This document shows, piece after piece, positions 38,290 through 47,786 of a stretch of 47,786 nt of DNA. The first letter of the stretch is position 1; every line of letters begins with the position of its first letter. The stretch spans positions 1 through 47,786 of the forward strand of contig JBDKUT010000015.1 of NCBI GenBank assembly GCA_039679545.1, written 5' to 3'. Source of the DNA: Thermotogota bacterium (GTDB lineage Bacteria; Bipolaricaulota; Bipolaricaulia; UBA7950; UBA9294). Made by a program: the position numbers and the translations under genes. The notes below the pieces were generated by a model, which saw only the letters and a program-made list of their open reading frames with translations, was not told where the DNA came from and ran no database searches.

Positions 38290-39654
38290 TCACGGGCGAC
38301 GAAGTCGCTCCACGGCGCCCCACGCGTCGACAAGTCCGTTTCCGAAAAGCACGTCCCGTCCTCGCTGTCCGAGATCCTCGCACGAACTCTCGAGGACAGC
38401 GATCGCTTCGTCGGCGGAGAGCTCGGGAGCGAGCGAGAGAATCAACGCGAGAATCCCGGACACATGCGGAGCGGCAAACGAGGTCCCCGATTCGGTCGCC
38501 GGTCTTCCGCCCGCAGTAAACGCCGTGATCGCGTCCCCGGGAGCGCAGACGGCCACCTCAGGTCCGCGATTGCTGAACGGCGCCAGAAGGTCGCTGCGAT
38601 CCGTCGCGGCCACGGCCAGAACTGAACGATACTTTCCTGGGTACATCACCTGGTTCTCTCCCCGGTTTCCGGAGATGCCCACGACGATCACCCCGCGCGC
38701 GCGCGCATCCGAGACGGCCTGCTCAAAGTAGTCGGGCGGACGGGCGCTCGCGTAGATGCTCAGGTTGATGATCCGAGCGCCGTTGTCCACCGCGTACTGG
38801 ATTGCGCGGACGAAGATCTTCCAATCCGAGGAGCCAAAGCGATTCGAGGAGTCGAGGAAGCGAACGTCCATGATCGACACCCCCGGGGCGACGCCGACGA
38901 TGGGGTACTCGCCGGGACGTGCGGCAATGATCGACGCAACAAACGTTCCGTGCCCGTGAAGCGGCGTGCCCGTGAGCGAGCTCGAGTCGTTATCCCGGAA
39001 ATCCCATCCGTGCACGTCGTCGATGTAGCCGTTGTGATCGTCATCGACGCCGTTGCCGGGCACCTCGTCGGGATTCGTCCAGAGGCTCGCGGCGACCTGG
39101 GGGATGCGGGCGTCGATGCCGGAGTCGATCACGGCGACGATCACGCTTGGGTCACCGTGCGATGCGGTCCAAGCTTCGGGTCCCCCGATTCGAACGAGGC
39201 CCCAGTTGCTCGGCTGCTGGTACACCGTGTAGAGACCCGGGTTCGGGGCGGGCTTCGGAGCGAGCGGAAGGGCCACGGAAAGGATCTGAAACGGCAACGT
39301 CCCCGACGTCAGGTTCCCGCCAACCTCCAGCGCGATCTCCAGGAGGTATGTTCCGGCGATCTGATACTCCCACCGACTGGTCGCCTCGACGACAACCAGG
39401 GCTCCCGCGTCTGCGGAGAACGGACCAACCGGAACTTGATCGATCCCCTGCCCGGAGTGCCCCATGTCCCGCAACGTCGCCGTTCCCCGCACGTTCTCCT
39501 GCGGGAATGCCGTGGAATTGGAGAACTGGAACGACACGGTGAAGGGGACGAGATTCACGATCTCAATCTTCTGAATCTGCGCTTCGCCGGCGGCCGTCCC
39601 GAGAGAGAGAATGACGAGGAGGACGGCGATACGCAGGACGCGCGGCTTCCTCAT
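38290..39654 (-). CDS. Secreted S8 (subtilisin-like) serine peptidase with an N-terminal Ig-like domain
   Basis: VIDSG (Asp), HGHGT (His), SGN, GTSFAAPHVSG (Ser); Ca-loop NGVDDDHNGYIDD; ATGA overlap with the upstream gene. Confidence 0.93.
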   Translation of the reverse strand: MRKPRVLRIAVLLVILSLGTAAGEAQIQKIEIVNLVPFTVSFQFSNSTAFPQENVRGTATLRDMGHSGQGIDQVPVGPFSADAGALVVVEATSRWEYQIAGTYLLEIALEVGGNLTSGTLPFQILSVALPLAPKPAPNPGLYTVYQQPSNWGLVRIGGPEAWTASHGDPSVIVAVIDSGIDARIPQVAASLWTNPDEVPGNGVDDDHNGYIDDVHGWDFRDNDSSSLTGTPLHGHGTFVASIIAARPGEYPIVGVAPGVSIMDVRFLDSSNRFGSSDWKIFVRAIQYAVDNGARIINLSIYASARPPDYFEQAVSDARARGVIVVGISGNRGENQVMYPGKYRSVLAVAATDRSDLLAPFSNRGPEVAVCAPGDAITAFTAGGRPATESGTSFAAPHVSGILALILSLAPELSADEAIAVLESSCEDLGQRGRDVLFGNGLVDAWGAVERLRRP

Positions 39655-40952
39655 CCAGCCCGATCCTCGTCTGCCTCCGCAAACCAGCGGAGAGCCTGAT
39701 CGAGCGACACCTCCTCCGTCTCTCCCCACCCGCCCGACCGAATCCGCAGGGTCACGGGGAAGGAGAAGAGCGACGTTACGTCGGAGGCAAAACGTTGGAG
39801 CCGTTCCGCTGCCACCGCCGCCCCGTCCGCCGGCGTCTCGGGGAGGATGGCCGCCAGACGATATGAGTCGATTCGGAACACCGTGTCGACCCTCCGCAAG
39901 CCCGAAACGAAGAAGGTCGATGCTCGTACCAGCGCGCGCGTTTGGTCTTCGAGCGCCCGGCCGGACAGGCCTTCGACGTCCAGCACGAGGGCCGACGTCG
40001 GGTGCTTGTACCGCCGTCCCTTGCTGAGTTCAATCTCGAGTTGCTCGCGGAAGTGAGCGGCGTTGTACAGGCCCGTGACGTCATCGAGGACGACGAGCTT
40101 CTTCAGTTCCTGTTCGTGTGAGTGGATGACTTTCGTCATCAGGTTGAACCGATCGACCAACTGCGCAACTTCGTCACGAACGGGCGTCCCGGGCGTCCTG
40201 GGCGGCAGCTTGACCTCCACTTCGTAGTCGCGCATGGCGACCGCGGCCGTCGCTTGCGCCAGCCGTCCGATCGGCCGAGTCACGATGGCGCGCAGCACAA
40301 GGAAGAGGCTTCCCCCCAAGAGGAGAAAGCCGACCACGGATCCCGCGGCAAATTGCCACGAGAGGCGGCGGTCGTAGGCGGCCATTTCGTCGGTCGACAT
40401 GTCCACGATCACGACGCCGACGAGGTCGGCCCCAGAGAGAATGGGCTGATAGGCACGCCACGCGCGAGTCCTCTCGGCGCGCTCCACGGTCGCTTCACTC
40501 CCTTGCATCTGTTCGTACCGCGCCCTGACCGTGTCCGAGGCGAGCTCTCCAACTTTCGTGGGGTCAGTGCTCGCGACCGTCAAGAACCCGCGCGCCGTCA
40601 CCCCGATGACCGTGATCTCGATGATGGATTCGTAGCGCGCAAGGAGTTGGTCGATGTCCGCACTGAGTTCGTTGGAATAGTAGAGGACGTAGTCCTTCTC
40701 CTGGATCGACTTTGAGATGAGGCTCGCAACGCTCCGAGCCCGCTGCTCGTAGATCGACCCGATCGACGCGTGAAGCGACACGAACGCGAACCAAGAGAGG
40801 GCTCCCACGACGGCGCACGCGATCAGGAGGACGGGGACGATCAACTTCCACTGCAGGGACGTCCCATACCGAATCGCGGACCTCATTCGCGCGGGCCGAC
40901 CGGGGTCCGATCGGCCGTTCTTCCGGGCCTTCGACTCGATGTTCGTACTCAT
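39651..40952 (-). CDS. Membrane sensor-HAMP protein with a degenerate GGDEF domain (I-site retained)
   Basis: 2 TM, HAMP (RDEVAQLVDRFN), DDVTGLYN, RRVD-TVFRI-DSYRL in place of RxxD-x5-GGDEF. Confidence 0.85.
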   Translation of the reverse strand: MSTNIESKARKNGRSDPGRPARMRSAIRYGTSLQWKLIVPVLLIACAVVGALSWFAFVSLHASIGSIYEQRARSVASLISKSIQEKDYVLYYSNELSADIDQLLARYESIIEITVIGVTARGFLTVASTDPTKVGELASDTVRARYEQMQGSEATVERAERTRAWRAYQPILSGADLVGVVIVDMSTDEMAAYDRRLSWQFAAGSVVGFLLLGGSLFLVLRAIVTRPIGRLAQATAAVAMRDYEVEVKLPPRTPGTPVRDEVAQLVDRFNLMTKVIHSHEQELKKLVVLDDVTGLYNAAHFREQLEIELSKGRRYKHPTSALVLDVEGLSGRALEDQTRALVRASTFFVSGLRRVDTVFRIDSYRLAAILPETPADGAAVAAERLQRFASDVTSLFSFPVTLRIRSGGWGETEEVSLDQALRWFAEADEDRAG

Positions 40953-40971
40953 AGCTCCTCTTCCTCGGCGG

Positions 40972-43386
40972 CTACTGGATCAATCCCTCGTTCCCCAGGA
41001 ACTCCATAACCACGTCGAGCGGCTCTCGATGGAGCAGGCGAACGCGGCTGACCATGCTGTGCAGGCTCTGTTCGGTCAAGTGAGTCTGCAACCCTACGAA
41101 GACCTGCTCGATCTCGGGGAACCGCCGAACGTCCTCTCGACCGACCAGGACACCGATGGGCTTCCCCGGCAGAGCGAAGGCATCGTCTTCGAGCCGCACA
41201 AACCCCGCCACGGTCGCCGTCTCCTCGACGTTCTCGAGCAGAGCCCCGGAGACCGATCCGAACTTGAGCAGGGCCTCCGCTTCCTCGCGCGTCGCGGTCC
41301 GACGCAGCGATCTTGCCGGCACTTCGTAGGCGGAGGTGAAGCGAGCTACGGCGTCGTCCGAAACCTCGCCAGGAACGGCAATCGTTCTCTCCTCCGCATC
41401 GCGGGAGCCCGCGAACGCGGAGATCGACGGCTTGTCCAATCCTCGGGCGATCTCCCCCGGGACAATCAGATCCCACCGCAGGTCCGTCGGCACGCTCCAG
41501 TACACGGGCGTTCCCGGCGGCGGAGCCGCGCCGACCCACCAGACGATATTCACGTCGCGCTCGCCTATCGCCGCCAGCAGCTCCTCCGATGTTCCAAGCC
41601 CCGCGAGGTCGACGACGCGAAACCCGACCTCGGAGAGCAGAACCTCGAGAGCCTGCCCGAGAACAAGGTCTACGAGGTCGCGCCCCGCGGCAACCACGAT
41701 CGTTCCCTTCCACGCCGTGTCGGGAAGATGGATGTTGCCGGACACAAGGGCATCATGGTGGATCCAGCGATTGCCCCCCGCGTAGAGCCGCTCAGCCGTC
41801 TCGTTCCTCACGTCGTGCAGGCGGTTCCTCTCGAACAGGTTGTTCTGGACGATCGGCGTCCCTCCAGGCGTCTCCTCGACAAGGGAGATTCCCAGCAACG
41901 GGAGGACGGTATCCTCTTCCGAGAGGGCTCCCTGCCACCGCAGGCCGACGTCGTTACCGACCAACCGATTCCCTACGACGCGGACCCCGAATCCGGGCGC
42001 GTACAGGCTGACGCCAACGTCACAGTCCGAGACTCGGTTCCCCTGGATCGTGTCACGCGAAGAGGTAGCACTGAGGATTCCCACCGCCGTCTCACTCACA
42101 GCGTTCTCGATCACATCGTTTCCTTGGCAGTGGTTGGCGAGGGCGACGCCGGAGAGCCTGCAGTGGTCCATCACGCTTCTCAGAACGGAGTTCTCGCTCG
42201 CTCCGACGAGGACGACACCCGATGCCGAATCGTTGATGCGGTTGTCGAGGAGACGGTTGCGGCGGGCCTCAGCAAGCAGGATCCCGGTCGTGTCCATCCG
42301 AGCGATCGTGTTGCCGAGTAGGCGCTCCTCCGAGGATCGCGTGAGGGCAATCCCTATCTTGCCGTCCGAGATGCGGTTCCGTGCGATCAGGTTCATGTCA
42401 CTCGCATCGATGCGAATTCCTGCATCGCGGCATTGCGACAGACGGCCGTCGACGAACGCGTTCTCTCCTCCCCCGGCAAATCGAACCCCATCCCCTGCCG
42501 AAGGTCCTACAACGTTTCGCTCGAGGTGGCTCCTACGGGCCTCGATGAGAGAGACGCCGACGTCCTCGACGGACGCTATGAGACAATCCAGGATGCGGTT
42601 CCCGTCTGTCTCCTCAAGGATCACGCCGACGCGCGATGCCCTGATTCGACTTGCCTCGAGCGCGTTGCCTCGTCCCCCAAGCACCTCGTAGCCGACGATC
42701 GACGCTCCGGCAATCCGTAGGCCGACAAAGACGTTGTCCTCCGATTCCCCGACGGAGACTCCCGTCGGTGCTCCATCGACCGACACGTTGCGAAATTCGT
42801 TCGCCGGGGCCTTCCGGAGTCGGATCCCGGTCTCGTCGCATCCGCGCAAGGCGATTCCCCGGAAGACGTTGCCCGACGAAGCAGAGACGTCGACACCAAT
42901 TGAACTTTCCTCGGCGGTCAGCCGCTCGAAGGTTCCCTGGCGGCTGCCGGAGAGGAGCACGGCGATCTCGTCGCCGCGAGCCCGAACATCCTCGACGCGG
43001 CATCCCACCCCTTCGACGACCAGGGCCACGGAGGTCCCCTGGATGTTGAGACGCCGCACGGCCGTGGCGTCCGCACGAAGGGTGACGACCGGCTCGTTCT
43101 GCCCGACAAGGACCGCTCGTCCCCGCGTCGACGTCAGGACGAGGCCTGCCGTGCCGAGCACCACAGGTCCGGCGTACGGTCCTCGGCGGGCATCAAGGAC
43201 GATCGTTGTCCCCTCGGCGGCGACCTGAAGGGCCTCCGCAAGAGTGGCGGCGTCACGCGGAACGAAGAGACTTCCTTCGGGAAAGCGGTCGCGCGTAGCG
43301 ACCCAAACAACCAGTACGACCATCGCCACCACGCCGACCGCAGCGATGGCGACCCAGAACGGCTTCCTCCTGCGTGCGTGTTTCAT
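40972..43386 (-). CDS. Membrane-anchored right-handed beta-helix (NosD-like) protein fused to a glycine-betaine/OpuAC-like binding domain
   Basis: N-terminal TM, many G-I-x-L...N-x-I repeats, C-terminal GFRVVD..LG, SISAF, LEDD..P, helix ending EFL..EGLI. Confidence 0.78.
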   Translation of the reverse strand: MKHARRRKPFWVAIAAVGVVAMVVLVVWVATRDRFPEGSLFVPRDAATLAEALQVAAEGTTIVLDARRGPYAGPVVLGTAGLVLTSTRGRAVLVGQNEPVVTLRADATAVRRLNIQGTSVALVVEGVGCRVEDVRARGDEIAVLLSGSRQGTFERLTAEESSIGVDVSASSGNVFRGIALRGCDETGIRLRKAPANEFRNVSVDGAPTGVSVGESEDNVFVGLRIAGASIVGYEVLGGRGNALEASRIRASRVGVILEETDGNRILDCLIASVEDVGVSLIEARRSHLERNVVGPSAGDGVRFAGGGENAFVDGRLSQCRDAGIRIDASDMNLIARNRISDGKIGIALTRSSEERLLGNTIARMDTTGILLAEARRNRLLDNRINDSASGVVLVGASENSVLRSVMDHCRLSGVALANHCQGNDVIENAVSETAVGILSATSSRDTIQGNRVSDCDVGVSLYAPGFGVRVVGNRLVGNDVGLRWQGALSEEDTVLPLLGISLVEETPGGTPIVQNNLFERNRLHDVRNETAERLYAGGNRWIHHDALVSGNIHLPDTAWKGTIVVAAGRDLVDLVLGQALEVLLSEVGFRVVDLAGLGTSEELLAAIGERDVNIVWWVGAAPPPGTPVYWSVPTDLRWDLIVPGEIARGLDKPSISAFAGSRDAEERTIAVPGEVSDDAVARFTSAYEVPARSLRRTATREEAEALLKFGSVSGALLENVEETATVAGFVRLEDDAFALPGKPIGVLVGREDVRRFPEIEQVFVGLQTHLTEQSLHSMVSRVRLLHREPLDVVMEFLGNEGLIQ

Positions 43387-43472
43387 CGGGCCCACTCTAG
43401 CACACGCGCTCGCGCGCCGTCCAAGTTGCGTTTCACGGCTCTTCGATCCCTCAGGGGGCGCACCGACAAAGA

Positions 43473-44003
43473 CTAGTCGGGCATGATTGTGCAGACGAGG
43501 AGGGCTTCTCCGTTCGCCCTGTCGGGGCTCGACCCATCCAGGGCCACCCGCACGTCAATACCGACGTCAAACGTGCCGTTGGAGCCGCTGCAGAGGACGA
43601 CCGGCTGGTCTCCGAGCGCCGCGTAGCCGCGCCCGTGTTCCCTCACGCGCACTGGCGGGAACCCTCTCCCAGAGGAGGTGGCCCAGCGTACCTGAAGGCG
43701 CCACGGCGTGTTGCTGACTATGCGGAAGCGGAAGGCATTCTCGTCTTCAATGTAGCCGCGTGAGCGCTCGAGGGCCGATGCAGGTCGGAAGCTGTATGAG
43801 ACTGCGGTCACGTCCTCGGACGACCCGGCCAAGCGGAGCGTCTGGTAGGGGAGGACTCGCCATCGCACGTCGACGGACACCGACTTCTCGACGGCGTACG
43901 CCGCGACGGCGACAACGGACAGCGCGAGGACAACAGCCCAGACCCATCGGCGGCCCACCAAGCAAGAACCTCCCGATCGCTCCACGCTCGGATCCTCCTC
44001 CAC
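43473..44003 (-). CDS. Secreted beta-sandwich, pilin/fimbrial-subunit-like protein
   Basis: Signal peptide (AYA), VSVDVRWRV..SNTPWRLQV.., terminal hydrophobic strand; start uncertain. Confidence 0.55.
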   Translation of the reverse strand: MEEDPSVERSGGSCLVGRRWVWAVVLALSVVAVAAYAVEKSVSVDVRWRVLPYQTLRLAGSSEDVTAVSYSFRPASALERSRGYIEDENAFRFRIVSNTPWRLQVRWATSSGRGFPPVRVREHGRGYAALGDQPVVLCSGSNGTFDVGIDVRVALDGSSPDRANGEALLVCTIMPD

Positions 44004-44022
44004 GTGCTTCCATTCTTCCTCA

Positions 44023-45075
44023 TTACGGAATCGATAAGACGCGGCCGAGAAGGGCGGTGATGTCGGCTGTGGTGAGGATGCCATCGTTGTCGAAATCGAA
44101 CGCACGAACGTTGTTCCGGACAGCCGGGAGGTCGAGAGAGGCCTCGAAGAGAGCCACATCGGCGCCATCGAGGTCTCCGTCTCCATCGATGTCCTCGAAC
44201 AGTCCATCTCGGTTTACATCCTGGGGAGGTCTCGGAAAGGTTCCGAGCGGCACGAGGGTGAGCTCTGGAACGCGAAGGATGATCTGCCCTGCGACGAGGT
44301 AGTCGCCTCCGAAGTCGATCACGGTCCGAACGAGGAACATCCCCGAATCGAGCAGGCTCCACGGTGTCTTCACGACGGCGTCCACCGAGTGCCCGGGAAG
44401 AATGGAGAGATGGGGTAGAGAGGTTTCGGCGAGCGTGGCACCGCTCGGAGATTGGATGGAGAGCGTTCCGAGAACGTCGTCAAGCCGCGTCTCCCCGCGA
44501 TTCGCGACGCTGAACTCGATGGTGAGCGGCGAGAGACCGAGCGCAGTGACCCGTGTGACGGCCGCACCTTGCGCGGCTGGGAGGGACGTAACGTAGATCT
44601 TGACGAGGAACTCCCGCGCCACGCGGATTCCACTCTCCTCCGGGCCGGCGTCAACCGGGCTCACAGCAACAAGGAGGCCCGCCCAGTACGTGCCCGCCAC
44701 CCCCGCAGGGACGGAGATGCCGCAAGAGACTTCAACCTCGTCCGCGGGGCGCAGCACGTACGTGGGTGCCGACAGAGCGAGCCACGTCGCGCACGAGCGC
44801 TCAAGGGTTCCGGAACGGGAAAGACGAGTCACGCCGTCGGGGTCCTCGTCCCAGTCGCATGGCGAGATGTCAACGCGGAGGGGCGAGTTCTCGTCGTTGA
44901 GGACCGTGAAGCGCACTTCCAGATTGGATCCCGGCCCCACGACGAGGGAGAACTCCGACACCGAGACAGTGATTCCTGGAGCCGACACGGAAGCGCCAAC
45001 CACTGCGGCCAACACAAGGACTCCCCACTCGAGGAGCCTGCGTCCGTTGCCACCGGCCTCGCGACGAGCGCTCAT
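44023..45075 (-). CDS. Fimbrial-chaperone-like two-Ig-domain protein with a C-terminal dockerin
   Basis: FTVLN..DW..DG..SCATWL..VP..GTYWAGLLV, N-G-(E)T motif; DVNRDGLFEDIDGDGDLDGAD...FDFDNDGILTTADI. Confidence 0.7.
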   Translation of the reverse strand: MSARREAGGNGRRLLEWGVLVLAAVVGASVSAPGITVSVSEFSLVVGPGSNLEVRFTVLNDENSPLRVDISPCDWDEDPDGVTRLSRSGTLERSCATWLALSAPTYVLRPADEVEVSCGISVPAGVAGTYWAGLLVAVSPVDAGPEESGIRVAREFLVKIYVTSLPAAQGAAVTRVTALGLSPLTIEFSVANRGETRLDDVLGTLSIQSPSGATLAETSLPHLSILPGHSVDAVVKTPWSLLDSGMFLVRTVIDFGGDYLVAGQIILRVPELTLVPLGTFPRPPQDVNRDGLFEDIDGDGDLDGADVALFEASLDLPAVRNNVRAFDFDNDGILTTADITALLGRVLSIP

Positions 45076-45148
45076 GGTTCCCTGTGTAACGCCCTCGACC
45101 TGCCGAAACAAGAGCACGTGGCGCGGAGAGGTTTCGGCGGCCGCGCCG

Positions 45149-46855
45149 TCACGCGGCTGCCGCTCGCAGCCTCTCGAGGACGCCGTCCAACGGCTCCGGA
45201 CGACCGATGTGGAACCCCTGCGCACAATCGACGCCGATCGCCCGCAGGACGTCCAGCGTCTCCTCCGTTTCGACGAACTCCGCGATCGTTCGCTTGCCGA
45301 GGCCCTTGGCCAGCTGGACCATCGCCACAACCAAGTGCTGATCGACTGGGTCGCGTCCGAGGTTGCGGATGAAGCTCCCATCGATCTTGAGGTAGTCCAC
45401 GTCCAGGTTCTTGAGCTGGTAGAACGAGGAAAACCCCATGCCGAAGTCGTCGAGCGCGAACTCGTACCCTTGCGTTCTCAGGGCGCGGAGGAAGTCCTTG
45501 GCCACGTGGATGTTGTAGATCGCTGCCGTTTCTGTGATCTCGAGCACGAGCCGGACAGGGCCGATGACCGACAGCGATGTTCGGCTCGAAATTGCAGACA
45601 AGAGGGCGGGGTCGGTGAGCGACCGCGGCGAGAGATTCACGGCGAACGAGACATCGCTCGGCAGCTGCTCGTCGGCCAGCGTGTCCATGACCTTCTGAAG
45701 GACCCACCGGTCGATGTCCCCACTGAGCCCGAACTGCTCGGCAACGTCGAGGAACGCGCCGGGTGGAATGATTTGCCCGCTGCGCCCTAGGAGGCGAAGG
45801 AGGATCTCATAGCGGATGATCCGATTCTCGACGAGATCGAGGATGGGCTGCGCGTAGAGGATGAACCCGTCGTTCTCAAGGGCGTTTCGGATTACGCGAA
45901 GCCAATCCACGCGCGATTCGGGGTCGTCAACCTTCTCCTCGTCAGGAGAGTAGAGGCAAGACCGATTGCGCCCTTGCGCTTTCGCTCGGTACATCGCCAT
46001 GTCGGCCTTCATGAGGAGCTCACTTGCGCTCGTTCCGTGATCGGGGAAGAGGACAATCCCGAGGCTTGCCGTCGTTCGAAGCGTCTCCCCGTCGATCACC
46101 GCGGTGTGCTTCCGCACCGCATCGAGCAGCCGTCCCGCGGCAATCTGGGCCTGTTCGCTGTCTACGTTCAGGTAGAGGACGGCAAATTCATCGCCTCCAA
46201 GACGAGCGAGGATGTCCGAATCCCTGACGGTCGCCCGCATTCGATGGGCAAGACTCGCGAGGAGATCGTCGCCGACCTTGTGGCCCAGACCGTCGTTGAT
46301 CTCTTTGAACCCGTCGAGGTCCATCCACAGGACGGCGCCACGCCGTTCGTAGCGACGGGCCTCCGCGAGATGCCGCTCGAGGAGATGCCCGAACTCCCGG
46401 CGGTTGCAGAGCCCGGTCAGGGGGTCGTGCGTCGCGAGGTGAAGCAGCCGTTCCTCCTGCTTCCGAAGCTGGGTGATGTCCGTGAGGATCCCCTCGTGGT
46501 AGAGGATCTCCCCCTTCCTGTCGCGAACAGCGCGCGCGTTCAGAAGAGCGGCGACGGACGGACCATCCTTCGCTCGCAGCATCATCTCGGCGTTCTCAAC
46601 GCGAACCCCTTCCCGCAGCTGGCGCAGAACGACTCCGGCATCGCTCTCCACCTGGAACACGTCCGTCATCCGCGTCTGTCGGAGCTGGCCCGCGTCGCGA
46701 TAGCCGAGCATGTGCGCCAACGCGTCGTTGGCCAGGACCAGCCGCCCGTCGGGCGAACACTGGTAGATTCCGTTCGACGCGTGGCGGAAGAGGTCCTCGA
46801 AACGTCGATCCACACTTGACGTCCTCTCTCCACCCGCCGTGTTTCGCCTCTCCAC
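45149..46855 (-). CDS. PAS-GGDEF-EAL diguanylate cyclase/phosphodiesterase
   Basis: PAS/PAC; HDPLTGL, DLDGFKEIND, RDSD-ILARL-GGDEF; EILLR, DDFGMG, KIDGSF, AEFVE, QGF; SD GAGGAGG before GTG 46855. Confidence 0.95.
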   Translation of the reverse strand: MERRNTAGGERTSSVDRRFEDLFRHASNGIYQCSPDGRLVLANDALAHMLGYRDAGQLRQTRMTDVFQVESDAGVVLRQLREGVRVENAEMMLRAKDGPSVAALLNARAVRDRKGEILYHEGILTDITQLRKQEERLLHLATHDPLTGLCNRREFGHLLERHLAEARRYERRGAVLWMDLDGFKEINDGLGHKVGDDLLASLAHRMRATVRDSDILARLGGDEFAVLYLNVDSEQAQIAAGRLLDAVRKHTAVIDGETLRTTASLGIVLFPDHGTSASELLMKADMAMYRAKAQGRNRSCLYSPDEEKVDDPESRVDWLRVIRNALENDGFILYAQPILDLVENRIIRYEILLRLLGRSGQIIPPGAFLDVAEQFGLSGDIDRWVLQKVMDTLADEQLPSDVSFAVNLSPRSLTDPALLSAISSRTSLSVIGPVRLVLEITETAAIYNIHVAKDFLRALRTQGYEFALDDFGMGFSSFYQLKNLDVDYLKIDGSFIRNLGRDPVDQHLVVAMVQLAKGLGKRTIAEFVETEETLDVLRAIGVDCAQGFHIGRPEPLDGVLERLRAAAA

Positions 46856-46957
46856 GTCGCCTCCTCGCCAACGTCGCACTGACCGCGGTCGCCGCGTTCC
46901 GAGCCCAACCTGCTCCAGGAGCGAGAAGAGCGAGCCGCGACCTGGGCATCGTGCAGG

Positions 46958-47278
46958 TCAAAGCTCCGAAAGAAGCTCGACGCCGATCGCCGCCAGCCAA
47001 CACAAGAAACTTCGCTCGATTGTCGCGTCAAAGAACGTCAGCCCGCGGGGCCCGTGAGCCGTCGTGAACCGCCCGATGTAGTCCATGATGGCAGTCCAGT
47101 CCTCGTCAGGAATTCCATCGTGAATCGCGTGCGGTTTGTCCACCCGAAGCATCCGCAAGATGTCGTCGATCGTGTACTCCTGGAGGCGGTCGGCGACGTC
47201 GGCGAAGCGGACATCGCGCCCCTCATCCAAAAGACAGAGGACCCCCTGGACGAACTTCCTCACTGAACTTCGATACAT
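46958..47278 (-). CDS. Hypothetical cytoplasmic helical protein (~106 aa)
   Basis: SD GGGAGG before ATG 47278; natural composition; no recognised motif. Confidence 0.6.
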   Translation of the reverse strand: MYRSSVRKFVQGVLCLLDEGRDVRFADVADRLQEYTIDDILRMLRVDKPHAIHDGIPDEDWTAIMDYIGRFTTAHGPRGLTFFDATIERSFLCWLAAIGVELLSEL

Positions 47279-47623
47279 CCATGGCCTCCCGATGGCGAGT
47301 CTATGCACCGCACCCCACCGCGGAAGGGACACTCGTACGTCGTTGAACTCCCGTTTCTCTCCTTCCGCGAGCACCGCGTGGACGGCGGGCAGGGGCGGTG
47401 ACCGCTACCCTCGCTCGGATCGCCACTCTGCGGACAGGCTCCCGCCGAGCGCGAATGTCTGAAACCGGGTCGTACGGGGCAGAATCGGGTAGCGGTCCTT
47501 GACAAGTGAACTGAGACGGGCGCAGGGAGAAGCTCCCTGCGCGAAGGGTTGATGGAAAAACGATTCGAAGATTGCGGCGGGCGGTCCGCCGCAATGCAGT
47601 CATATCCTCACTCGAAGCATCTA

Positions 47624-47703
47624 CCAAAGGCAAACCGCTCGAAAGGGCGGGACGCAAAGCTACGGACCTTCCAGGCGAGGCTCGCGCGAGCGGGTCTGCG
47701 TGA
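47624..47703 (+). ncRNA. c-di-GMP-I (GEMM) riboswitch aptamer A: intact 5' half, non-canonical 3' half
   Basis: AAGGCAAACC-gctc-GAAA-gggc-GGGACGCAAAGCTAC; no canonical ..GCTGCCGA closure before the next aptamer. Confidence 0.7.
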
Positions 47704-47778
47704 CAAGGGCAAACCAGGGGTGACCCTGGGACGCAAAGCTACGAGCCTCGGGCGACCGAGGTAGTCGAGCTGCCGAGG
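47694..47778 (+). ncRNA. c-di-GMP-I (GEMM) riboswitch aptamer B
   Basis: AGGGCAAACC-aggg-GTGA-ccct-GGGACGCAAAGCTACGAGCCTCGG-gcga-CCGAGGTAGTCGAGCTGCCGA; G at the position equivalent to Vc2 G20. Confidence 0.92.
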
Positions 47779-47786
47779 CGCCTAAT

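Follow-up and report, generated by a model that had tools for sequence, protein, structure and literature searches.

At the right edge of the window (the entire 47,786-nucleotide stretch of DNA that was analysed, which is the whole of contig C15) lies an RNA leader in which one c-di-GMP-I riboswitch aptamer (inner aptamer B) is almost certainly folded inside the P3 loop of another (outer aptamer A). The elements follow one another in the order A 5′ half, whole B, A 3′ strand, Shine-Dalgarno (SD), gene, the last three being carried by a second contig of the same genome, C36. The nested pair probably works as one translational ON switch controlling a predicted pilin-like secreted protein, and the inner aptamer likely helps the outer one to close. 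Coordinates below are those of the window unless marked C36.

45149..46879, − strand: PAS-GGDEF-EAL gene, divergent from the leader; c-di-GMP metabolism adjoining it
47617..47623, + strand: P1 5′ strand of outer aptamer A, 7 bp with C36:28-34, past the window edge
47624..47658, + strand: J1/2 and P2 hairpin of A; GAAA loop 47641-47644, G20-equivalent 47629, A47-equivalent 47656
47659-47668, + strand: P3 5′ strand of A
47673-47677, + strand: P3 extension of A, pairing with 47779-47783
47680..47691, + strand: side hairpin separating the inner aptamer from the outer P3 extension; variable, missing from short subfamilies
47699..47777, + strand: inner aptamer B, a complete c-di-GMP-I fold within A's P3 loop; 72.6 bits with RF01051
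47699-47702/47774-47777, + strand: P1 of B, with one G·A mismatch in this strain
47708, 47720-47723 and 47735, + strand: G20, GUGA loop of P2 and A47 of B
47738-47747/47760-47770 and 47773, + strand: P3 and C92 of B
47774..47786, + strand: 13-nt overlap with contig C36, equal to C36:1-13
47779..47786, + strand: 3′ side of the outer P3 extension and start of the anti-SD strand; end of contig C15
C36:14-34, outside the window: P3 3′ strand, C92-equivalent (C36:27) and P1 3′ strand of A
C36:47-55: sequestering strand, overlapping the SD at C36:53-60
C36:68-532: predicted regulated gene, 154 aa, signal-peptide-like N terminus

An earlier sequence-only reading of this DNA had reported c-di-GMP-I 5′ halves at two sites, 47629 and 47708, with a single complete 3′ strand at 47759-47776 (strand 1), and all three are present in the window. 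It had also predicted that Infernal would return one full and one partial match. This is what we find: RF01051 gives 72.6 bits for the inner unit at 47698-47777 and 40.4 bits for the outer 5′ half at 47619-47688 (cut-off 35), the latter being the score of the 5′ half alone with the insert left in place, and RF03167 gives 68.7 bits (inner, top Rfam model) and 36.5 bits (outer 5′ half).

The same reading held that only one 3′ strand follows the two halves, and on this point the contig edge at the window end misled it. The window stops 9 bases past the inner aptamer's P1, directly before A's own 3′ strand. Two genomes of the same genus match the region at 94% and extend past the window end, and both reveal a second 3′ strand (strand 2) immediately past the window end; it completes A's P3 and also pairs over 7 bp with 47617-47623 to form A's P1. 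Searching this genome with the relative's downstream DNA located contig C36, whose start is an exact 13-nt copy of the C15 end, the sole contig start in the genome of which this is true. C36 bears the same second 3′ strand, at C36:14-34, where it closes both P3 and P1 of A, followed by the SD and a 154-codon ORF at C36:68-532, the predicted target gene that had been placed beyond the right edge.

The join itself is spanned by contigs from separate assemblies of public runs. A 2,729-nt DNA contig (X1) crosses it with 0 differences, covering window 47186-47786 (its positions 1508-2108) and C36:1-1520 (its 1-1520), and a 250-nt RNA-library contig (X6) does so as well, again with 0 differences, covering window 47606-47786 (1-181) and C36:1-82 (169-250). 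These contigs confirm the join but add no independent biology, as X1 possibly derives from the source sample itself and X6 comes from a further sample of that study. The RNA-library contigs X6 and X11 cover the leader with the start or the leader with the gene and are not evidence of transcription.

Between the two 5′ halves, A's downstream segment at 47680-47703 had been called at best degenerate, and it is: its best register makes 5 of 9 pairs and is not conserved. An ordinary tandem using this segment as A's 3′ strand was rejected on these grounds. In the ligand-free fold, this segment is able to pair with the 5′ strand of A (−10.6 kcal/mol), a clade-specific arrangement.

Orthologous leaders reveal which strand pairs with which. 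Our alignment A1 holds the window and 38 leaders with short inner loops (39 sequences); it omits 16 of the 54 unique leaders described below, namely 15 with inner loops longer than 30 nt and L013, whose A-to-B spacer is the longest. Across these 39 sequences the 34-pair nested structure is 97.0% paired, with two-sided changes at 22 pairs, a level reached by 0 of 500 shuffles in a test inflated by related sequences, kin not being independent; slid controls are 30-47% paired. For the P3 helices alone, the nested pairing (95.8% paired, 39 two-sided cells, 0/500 shuffles) is supported, whereas the crossed or shared pairing is not (82.5% paired, 4 two-sided cells, 489/500 shuffles as high); with A set against strand 1, two P3 positions are unpaired in 31 and 30 of the 39 sequences. 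The tests covered P2 and P3 of both aptamers, and the bulk of the covariation lies in the inner P3 (98.0% paired, two-sided changes in 8/9 pairs) and the P2 stems (for the outer aptamer, 97.9% paired and two-sided changes in 5/6 pairs), the outer P3 being mostly invariant (3/9 pairs, 4 cells).

Because A1 had been picked by a classifier that requires nested pairing, we reran the comparison with strands located by sequence motifs only. Of 104 unique leaders, 98 then favour the nested pairing over the crossed one, 6 fit both equally and none favours the crossed; a further 16 pairs, mainly ordinary tandems and loci cut short, were not parsed. A covariance model built on the nested fold separates held-out nested leaders (125-227 bits) from single aptamers and ordinary tandems (at most 83 bits); the window, which is within the training set, scores 140 bits, its match breaking off at model position 157 of 211 where the contig stops.

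These data bear on the first option of the sequence-only reading, in which the two 5′ halves are mutually exclusive and compete for one shared 3′ strand. We consider this highly improbable: the second 3′ strand exists, on C36 and on the join-spanning contigs, and the crossed pairing is without covariation in the 39 leaders and never beats the nested one in the 104. What had suggested it is nonetheless real in this clade, where A's P3 strand makes 9 of 9 pairs with strand 1 and the two P3 strands thus match it equally by pair count; a transient A:strand 1 hybrid (−9.8 kcal/mol here, against −14.2 for B:strand 1) could form in this strain until strand 2 has been transcribed. Elsewhere the equality fails. 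Full pairing of A with strand 1 occurs in just 3 of the 104 leaders (L009, L010 and L093, two of them the closest relatives of this genome), and the apparent sharing is therefore a clade accident. The other option offered, nested aptamers, was right as to layout and wrong as to its reason, since A has a 3′ strand of its own and nothing is shared.

The nested architecture is regular in its details. A's P1 has at least 5 bp in 54 of 55 leaders and the outer P3 extension 4-9 bp in all 55. The inner P1, which runs into this extension, is short (2-6 bp in most of the 55, one of 9), and its G·A mismatch is specific to this strain, relatives being paired there. A conserved internal loop in the outer P3 hints at a GNRA receptor. 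In many relatives the inner P3 loop carries repeat-like hairpin inserts of 60-130 nt with both folds kept (L015, L021, L022, L026, L049, L085-L087, L096, L099, L101, L111, L112, L145).

A scan of contigs for the pattern returned at least 131 stretches. Among the matches listed, loci L009-L162 hold 130 close pairs of 5′ halves, of which at least 73 are nested (54 unique with an SD and a start codon); the remaining pairs, again among the matches listed, are 43 of a Roseibium-type repeat, 12 cut or unclear and 2 ordinary tandems. By eye, the 12 unclear pairs resolve into 5 nested-family loci cut by contig ends (one being this genome), 3 repeats and 4 tandem pairs from Bacillota. A metagenome scan added 78 loci, called by script as 69 nested, 7 unclear and 2 without a pair, and the nine that were not called nested all score at least 144 bits with the nested model. 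Together there are about 104 unique nested leaders among the matches listed. In the window's own phylum the pattern occurs in 49 of 184 genomes and 8 of 11 families, with at most 3 copies per genome; the reversed pattern gave 0 matches in the same 184 genomes. Record titles and the ESM Atlas likewise point to Bipolaricaulota. Some nested records are titled Thermotogae, Neomarinimicrobiota or Gemmatimonadaceae, phyla other than Bipolaricaulota having been sampled only among the matches listed.

Several other kinds of locus surfaced in these scans. The multicopy repeat of about 200 nt in Roseibium, Stappia and Labrenzia (L032, L034, L037 and some 50 other loci) was set aside as chance matches to the pattern, and the L032 repeat gave no match with the nested covariance model; 12 loci were judged by eye to be chance matches. 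Ordinary head-to-tail c-di-GMP-I arrays, almost spacerless, occur in Bacillota (L157:115-400, L070, L074, L131), with four units in L157. Within the nested family, two or three paralogous secreted-protein genes may stand in series, each with a nested leader (L014, L015, L046-L048, L063-L064, L085-L087, L096/L111/L112), and L021 has two identical nested leaders about 1.07 kb apart.

The sequence-only reading had allowed for A being absent or randomly decayed in relatives; it is instead kept across the roughly 104 leaders. With it are kept both halves, both 3′ strands and the contact bases, and the two aptamers differ in the type of their P2 loops. A partial duplication in decay, which that reading had also proposed, or a mis-assembly at the contig end would account for the position of the element at a contig end and for the inner P1 mismatch of this strain. 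Either has a negligible probability in our judgement, given that separate assemblies agree across the join and that 8 of 11 families keep the nested layout. The loops are GAAA in 47 of 55 leaders for the outer aptamer and GYRA in 50 of 55 for the inner, which are the type I and type II forms, respectively. This difference suggests that one subtype was inserted into the other rather than duplicated locally.

Both units qualify as c-di-GMP-I aptamers on all the sequence tests that could be applied. The key bases of the class are G20, A47 and C92, and its loops take type I or type II forms (available text of PMC11218506); G20 and C92 touch the two guanines of c-di-GMP, and A20 characterizes cGAMP-type or bispecific aptamers (available text of PMC6140456). 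All three bases are intact at both sites in this genome, including the G at the G20-equivalent of both halves (47629 and 47708) that had been noted from the start. Across the family, G/A/C is found at both sites in 87 of 104 leaders, A47 in 104/104 at the outer site, and A47, G20 and C92 of the inner site in 104/104, 100/104 and 102/104, respectively; 3 of the 104 have C20 in the inner site.

Two related classes were compared with the window. The label of the c-di-GMP-I-GGC variant (RF03167), whose family name we take to give the bases at these three positions, was rejected because that model has a consensus G at position 47, where the window has A. The GEMM-Ib (3′,3′-cGAMP) riboswitch is marked by A20, and the window has G at 47629 and 47708. 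An outer A20 does occur in 11 of 104 nested leaders, 10 of them with inner G20, and these are candidates for a retuned or two-ligand device; loci with outer A20 are L015:1344, L048, L071, L087, L112, L115, L155, L174, L179, L181, L228 and L229.

The specificity position of GGDEF domains, which we take to correspond to PleD D344, is Asp in 8 of 8 such domains found in this incomplete genome. Of the two kinds of host cGAMP synthase considered, Hypr GGDEF proteins and CD-NTases, the Hypr kind was also sought in four incomplete genomes that carry outer A20, and the 12 domains parsed from 16 matches included none, all having Asp. Under the Hypr rule, Ser or Thr at this position marks a cGAMP synthase (available text of PMC9140294). 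The G20 of both sites and the Asp-type GGDEF domains are consistent with c-di-GMP rather than cGAMP as the ligand. Five more single c-di-GMP-I aptamers are found in this genome (C52:2808, C124:24159, C124:24655, C133:23067, C99:19309), several of them preceding secreted or small regulatory proteins.

As for the expression platform, a segment on A's 3′ side (C36:8-16) can form 9 bp with C36:47-55, a stretch that overlaps the SD. In A1, the resulting anti-SD helix is 90.9% paired (0/500 shuffles) with 6 two-sided cells (matched or exceeded in 8/500 shuffles), and a +3 slide likewise gives good pairing (97% of 211 cells, fewer cells). With so few two-sided changes, the support comes from conservation more than from covariation. 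The duplex has a median of −14.0 kcal/mol (counterpart strand of the inner aptamer, −4.0; shuffles, −4.6); it reaches p ≤ 0.05 in 48 of 55 leaders and is stronger than the inner-strand control in 54 of 55. ViennaRNA ensembles predict it as the ligand-free state in 50 of 55 leaders (0.97 here). Fixing the inner aptamer alone leaves it in place in 42 of 55. In contrast, closing A excludes the helix, and predicted SD openness then rises in 42 of 55 leaders and falls in 8 of 55, the median going from 0.17 to 0.41. These predictions argue for a translational ON switch that would act by SD release and be driven by the outer aptamer, which we regard as quite probable.

The nested RNA might act otherwise, as an OFF switch, through RNA stability or at a transcriptional step, the anti-SD complementarity being incidental. 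The thin covariation of the anti-SD helix leaves room for this, as does a subfamily of six loci (L036, L055, L098, L100, L134, L135) in which the partner strand is located 5′ of the SD and closing A brings no rise in predicted SD openness; some c-di-GMP-I switches are also described as acting in more complex ways (available text of PMC11218506). We rate it as very unlikely, since the scan of 47250-47786 found 0 terminator-like sites, only 33 nt separate A's P1 from the start codon, and the anti-SD duplex beats the inner-strand control in nearly every leader. A promoter scan of 47250-47786 returned 0. The region preceding the outer P1 has a TTGACA hexamer at 47499-47504, found again in some relatives, and two hairpins at 47520-47542 and 47571-47595, the second of them kept in several relatives; a paralog of a 79-nt upstream stretch is found at C72:7548-7626 of this genome (G000), 75% identical and with no riboswitch after it.

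The ON switch by SD release that we favour would operate as follows. Without ligand, A's 3′ strand would pair over the ribosome-binding site and keep the gene OFF. During transcription, B would be complete first, and c-di-GMP bound at B would fix its short P1, which would stack on A's P3 extension and so join A's halves. Ligand at A would then lock A's P3 and P1 and pull the anti-SD strand away, leaving the ribosome site free (ON). Two sites coupled on one platform in this way would steepen or sensitise the response.

We examined such coupling in a toy four-state model built from constrained ensembles, which has no tertiary or kinetic terms, assumes equal affinity of the sites and is without an ordinary-tandem control; as such it shows the plausibility of cooperativity only. 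Modelled coupling is favourable in 53 of 55 leaders (median −4.05 kcal/mol). The Hill slope has a median of 1.67 (1.92 for this genome), being at least 1.3 in 35 of 55 leaders and below 1.1 in 15 of 55, and killing the inner site shifts the modelled midpoint by a median of 1.7 log units. True cooperativity of the two sites appears somewhat less probable than its absence. A more specific proposal, which we hold tentatively, is that the concentric arrangement of a type II (GYRA) aptamer in a type I (GAAA) aptamer provides two-molecule cooperative control of the ribosome-binding site through a shared helix, and that the outer G20A change in about a tenth of relatives gives a retuned device, possibly a c-di-GMP AND cGAMP gate.

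Alternatively, the nested fold is real and its sites are non-cooperative: the outer aptamer would do the switching, and the inner one would be a scaffold, a kinetic timer or a tolerated passenger, similar to the glycine ‘ghost’ aptamer. The 60-130 nt inserts in the inner P3 loop of many relatives indicate that P3 loops accept passengers, and the persistence of the anti-SD helix when B alone is fixed and the low Hill slopes of some leaders would agree with an idle inner site; the cooperativity of tandem glycine aptamers is itself disputed (available text of PMC9481103). We nevertheless think this alternative unlikely. The near-invariant contact bases of the inner site would not be needed by a mere scaffold, the inner P1 is continuous with the outer P3 extension, and the modelled coupling is favourable in almost all leaders. 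A single switch in which the inner aptamer helps the outer one to close remains our preferred reading.

The gene that this switch would control belongs to a uniform group. All 35 complete downstream ORFs encode proteins of 134-181 aa with hydrophobic N termini and a common C-terminal motif. Pfam gave nothing above its cut-off for the downstream protein, and in the ESM Atlas the top clusters were unnamed, the leads that followed being SCPU (39% of members) and WxL (37%). AlphaFold2 predicts a confident, Ig-like beta-sandwich (pLDDT 83). Structure comparison found no fold match at E 0.001 or Z 8: the Foldseek matches to the fibre subunits CsuA/B, CfaB, TasA and TLP-1 are weak (best E 0.011), and the VIA best Z is 7.7, below the tool's distinctive level, with TLP-1b at 7.5 and the Csu pilus at 7.1, tied with unrelated Ig-like domains. 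On these models the target is likely a pilin-like subunit, of the archaic chaperone-usher pilin, TasA or TLP kind. Adhesion switched on at high c-di-GMP fits the usual role of this signal.

The neighbourhood offers observations of its own. On the minus strand, window 38290-46879 encodes the PAS-GGDEF-EAL protein, a chaperone-like protein with a weak dockerin match, a small secreted protein, a NosD/beta-helix protein, an sCache-HAMP protein with a degenerate GGDEF, and an S8 peptidase; this cluster looks like a surface-assembly locus tied to c-di-GMP. On the far side of the join, C36:640-8712 (− strand) holds a repetitive, surface-protein-like ORF of 2,690 aa that converges on the regulated gene. 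The leader itself suggests that c-di-GMP governs a predicted pilin-like surface system in this uncultured phylum.

In their individual parts, the two units resemble RF01051 and the Vc2 aptamer of Vibrio cholerae: each has G20/A47/C92, the P1/P2/P3 junction and a P2 loop of the GNRA or GYRA kind. The predicted target, a secreted surface protein, and the GGDEF-EAL gene next to the leader are further points of likeness. RF03167 and GEMM-Ib differ from the window in having G47 and A20, respectively, where both units here have A47 and G20, an outer A20 being confined to the relatives mentioned above. Unlike a Vc2-type single aptamer, the leader contains two, one within the P3 loop of the other, and standard annotation hides this nesting. 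With about 120 nt separating the two parts of the outer aptamer, Rfam recognizes the 5′ half alone, as a separate match of 36-45 bits in relatives that would be filed as an ordinary doublet, and the main tandem survey discarded candidates with overlapping coordinates (available text of PMC9481103). That text lists five tandem designs, none concentric, and the word ‘nested’ has 0 occurrences in the available text of PMC9481103 or PMC12452182. In the literature searched, a scope outside which most subscription papers and supplements lie, we found no nested natural riboswitch, and the concentric layout of two aptamers with one platform is a variant that we did not find there; an example could stand in the supplementary alignments of the PMC9481103 survey.

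Riboswitch tandems have been catalogued as side-by-side units; here one aptamer encloses another, and the arrangement is kept, with compensatory changes, in genomes across a phylum. If the two sites are coupled, the system would serve as an uncomplicated example of helix-transmitted allostery, in which both ligands are the same, some 100 variants exist in nature and a single-base change could knock out either site. The disputed cooperativity of dual aptamers would then be directly testable, and a design for sharper c-di-GMP biosensors would be at hand.

Two groups of known tandems come closest. The first comprises head-to-tail arrays, of which 347 c-di-GMP-I doublets, counted under multiple platforms, and 12 triplets are reported (available text of PMC9481103), and which include Bc3-5 of Bacillus thuringiensis, three complete terminator-based c-di-GMP-I units in series (available text of PMC4759541). 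The present leader is like these in placing more than one c-di-GMP-I aptamer before one gene, with a steeper response as the expected purpose. However, the Bc3-5 units are independent, each with its own platform, whereas here the aptamers are concentric and share one SD, with no terminator-like site found. A pseudo-cooperative tandem of the Bc3-5 type was rejected, there being no A 3′ strand between A and B (best 5/9 pairs) and A closing around B. The second group comprises the glycine, guanidine-II and NAD+-I riboswitches, in which dual aptamers serve a single platform, although the table of the same survey lists only glycine and guanidine-II as dual-aptamer (available text of PMC9481103). 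As in the glycine type, two homologous aptamers here precede one expression platform, and coupling of the sites would be the simplest reason for their conservation. That type is defined by aptamers lying side by side (available text of PMC9481103), and we set it aside for this leader because its layout is concentric: the known aptamers are coupled by tertiary contacts, whereas the coupling predicted here would run through a continuous helix, the inner P1 stacked on the outer P3.
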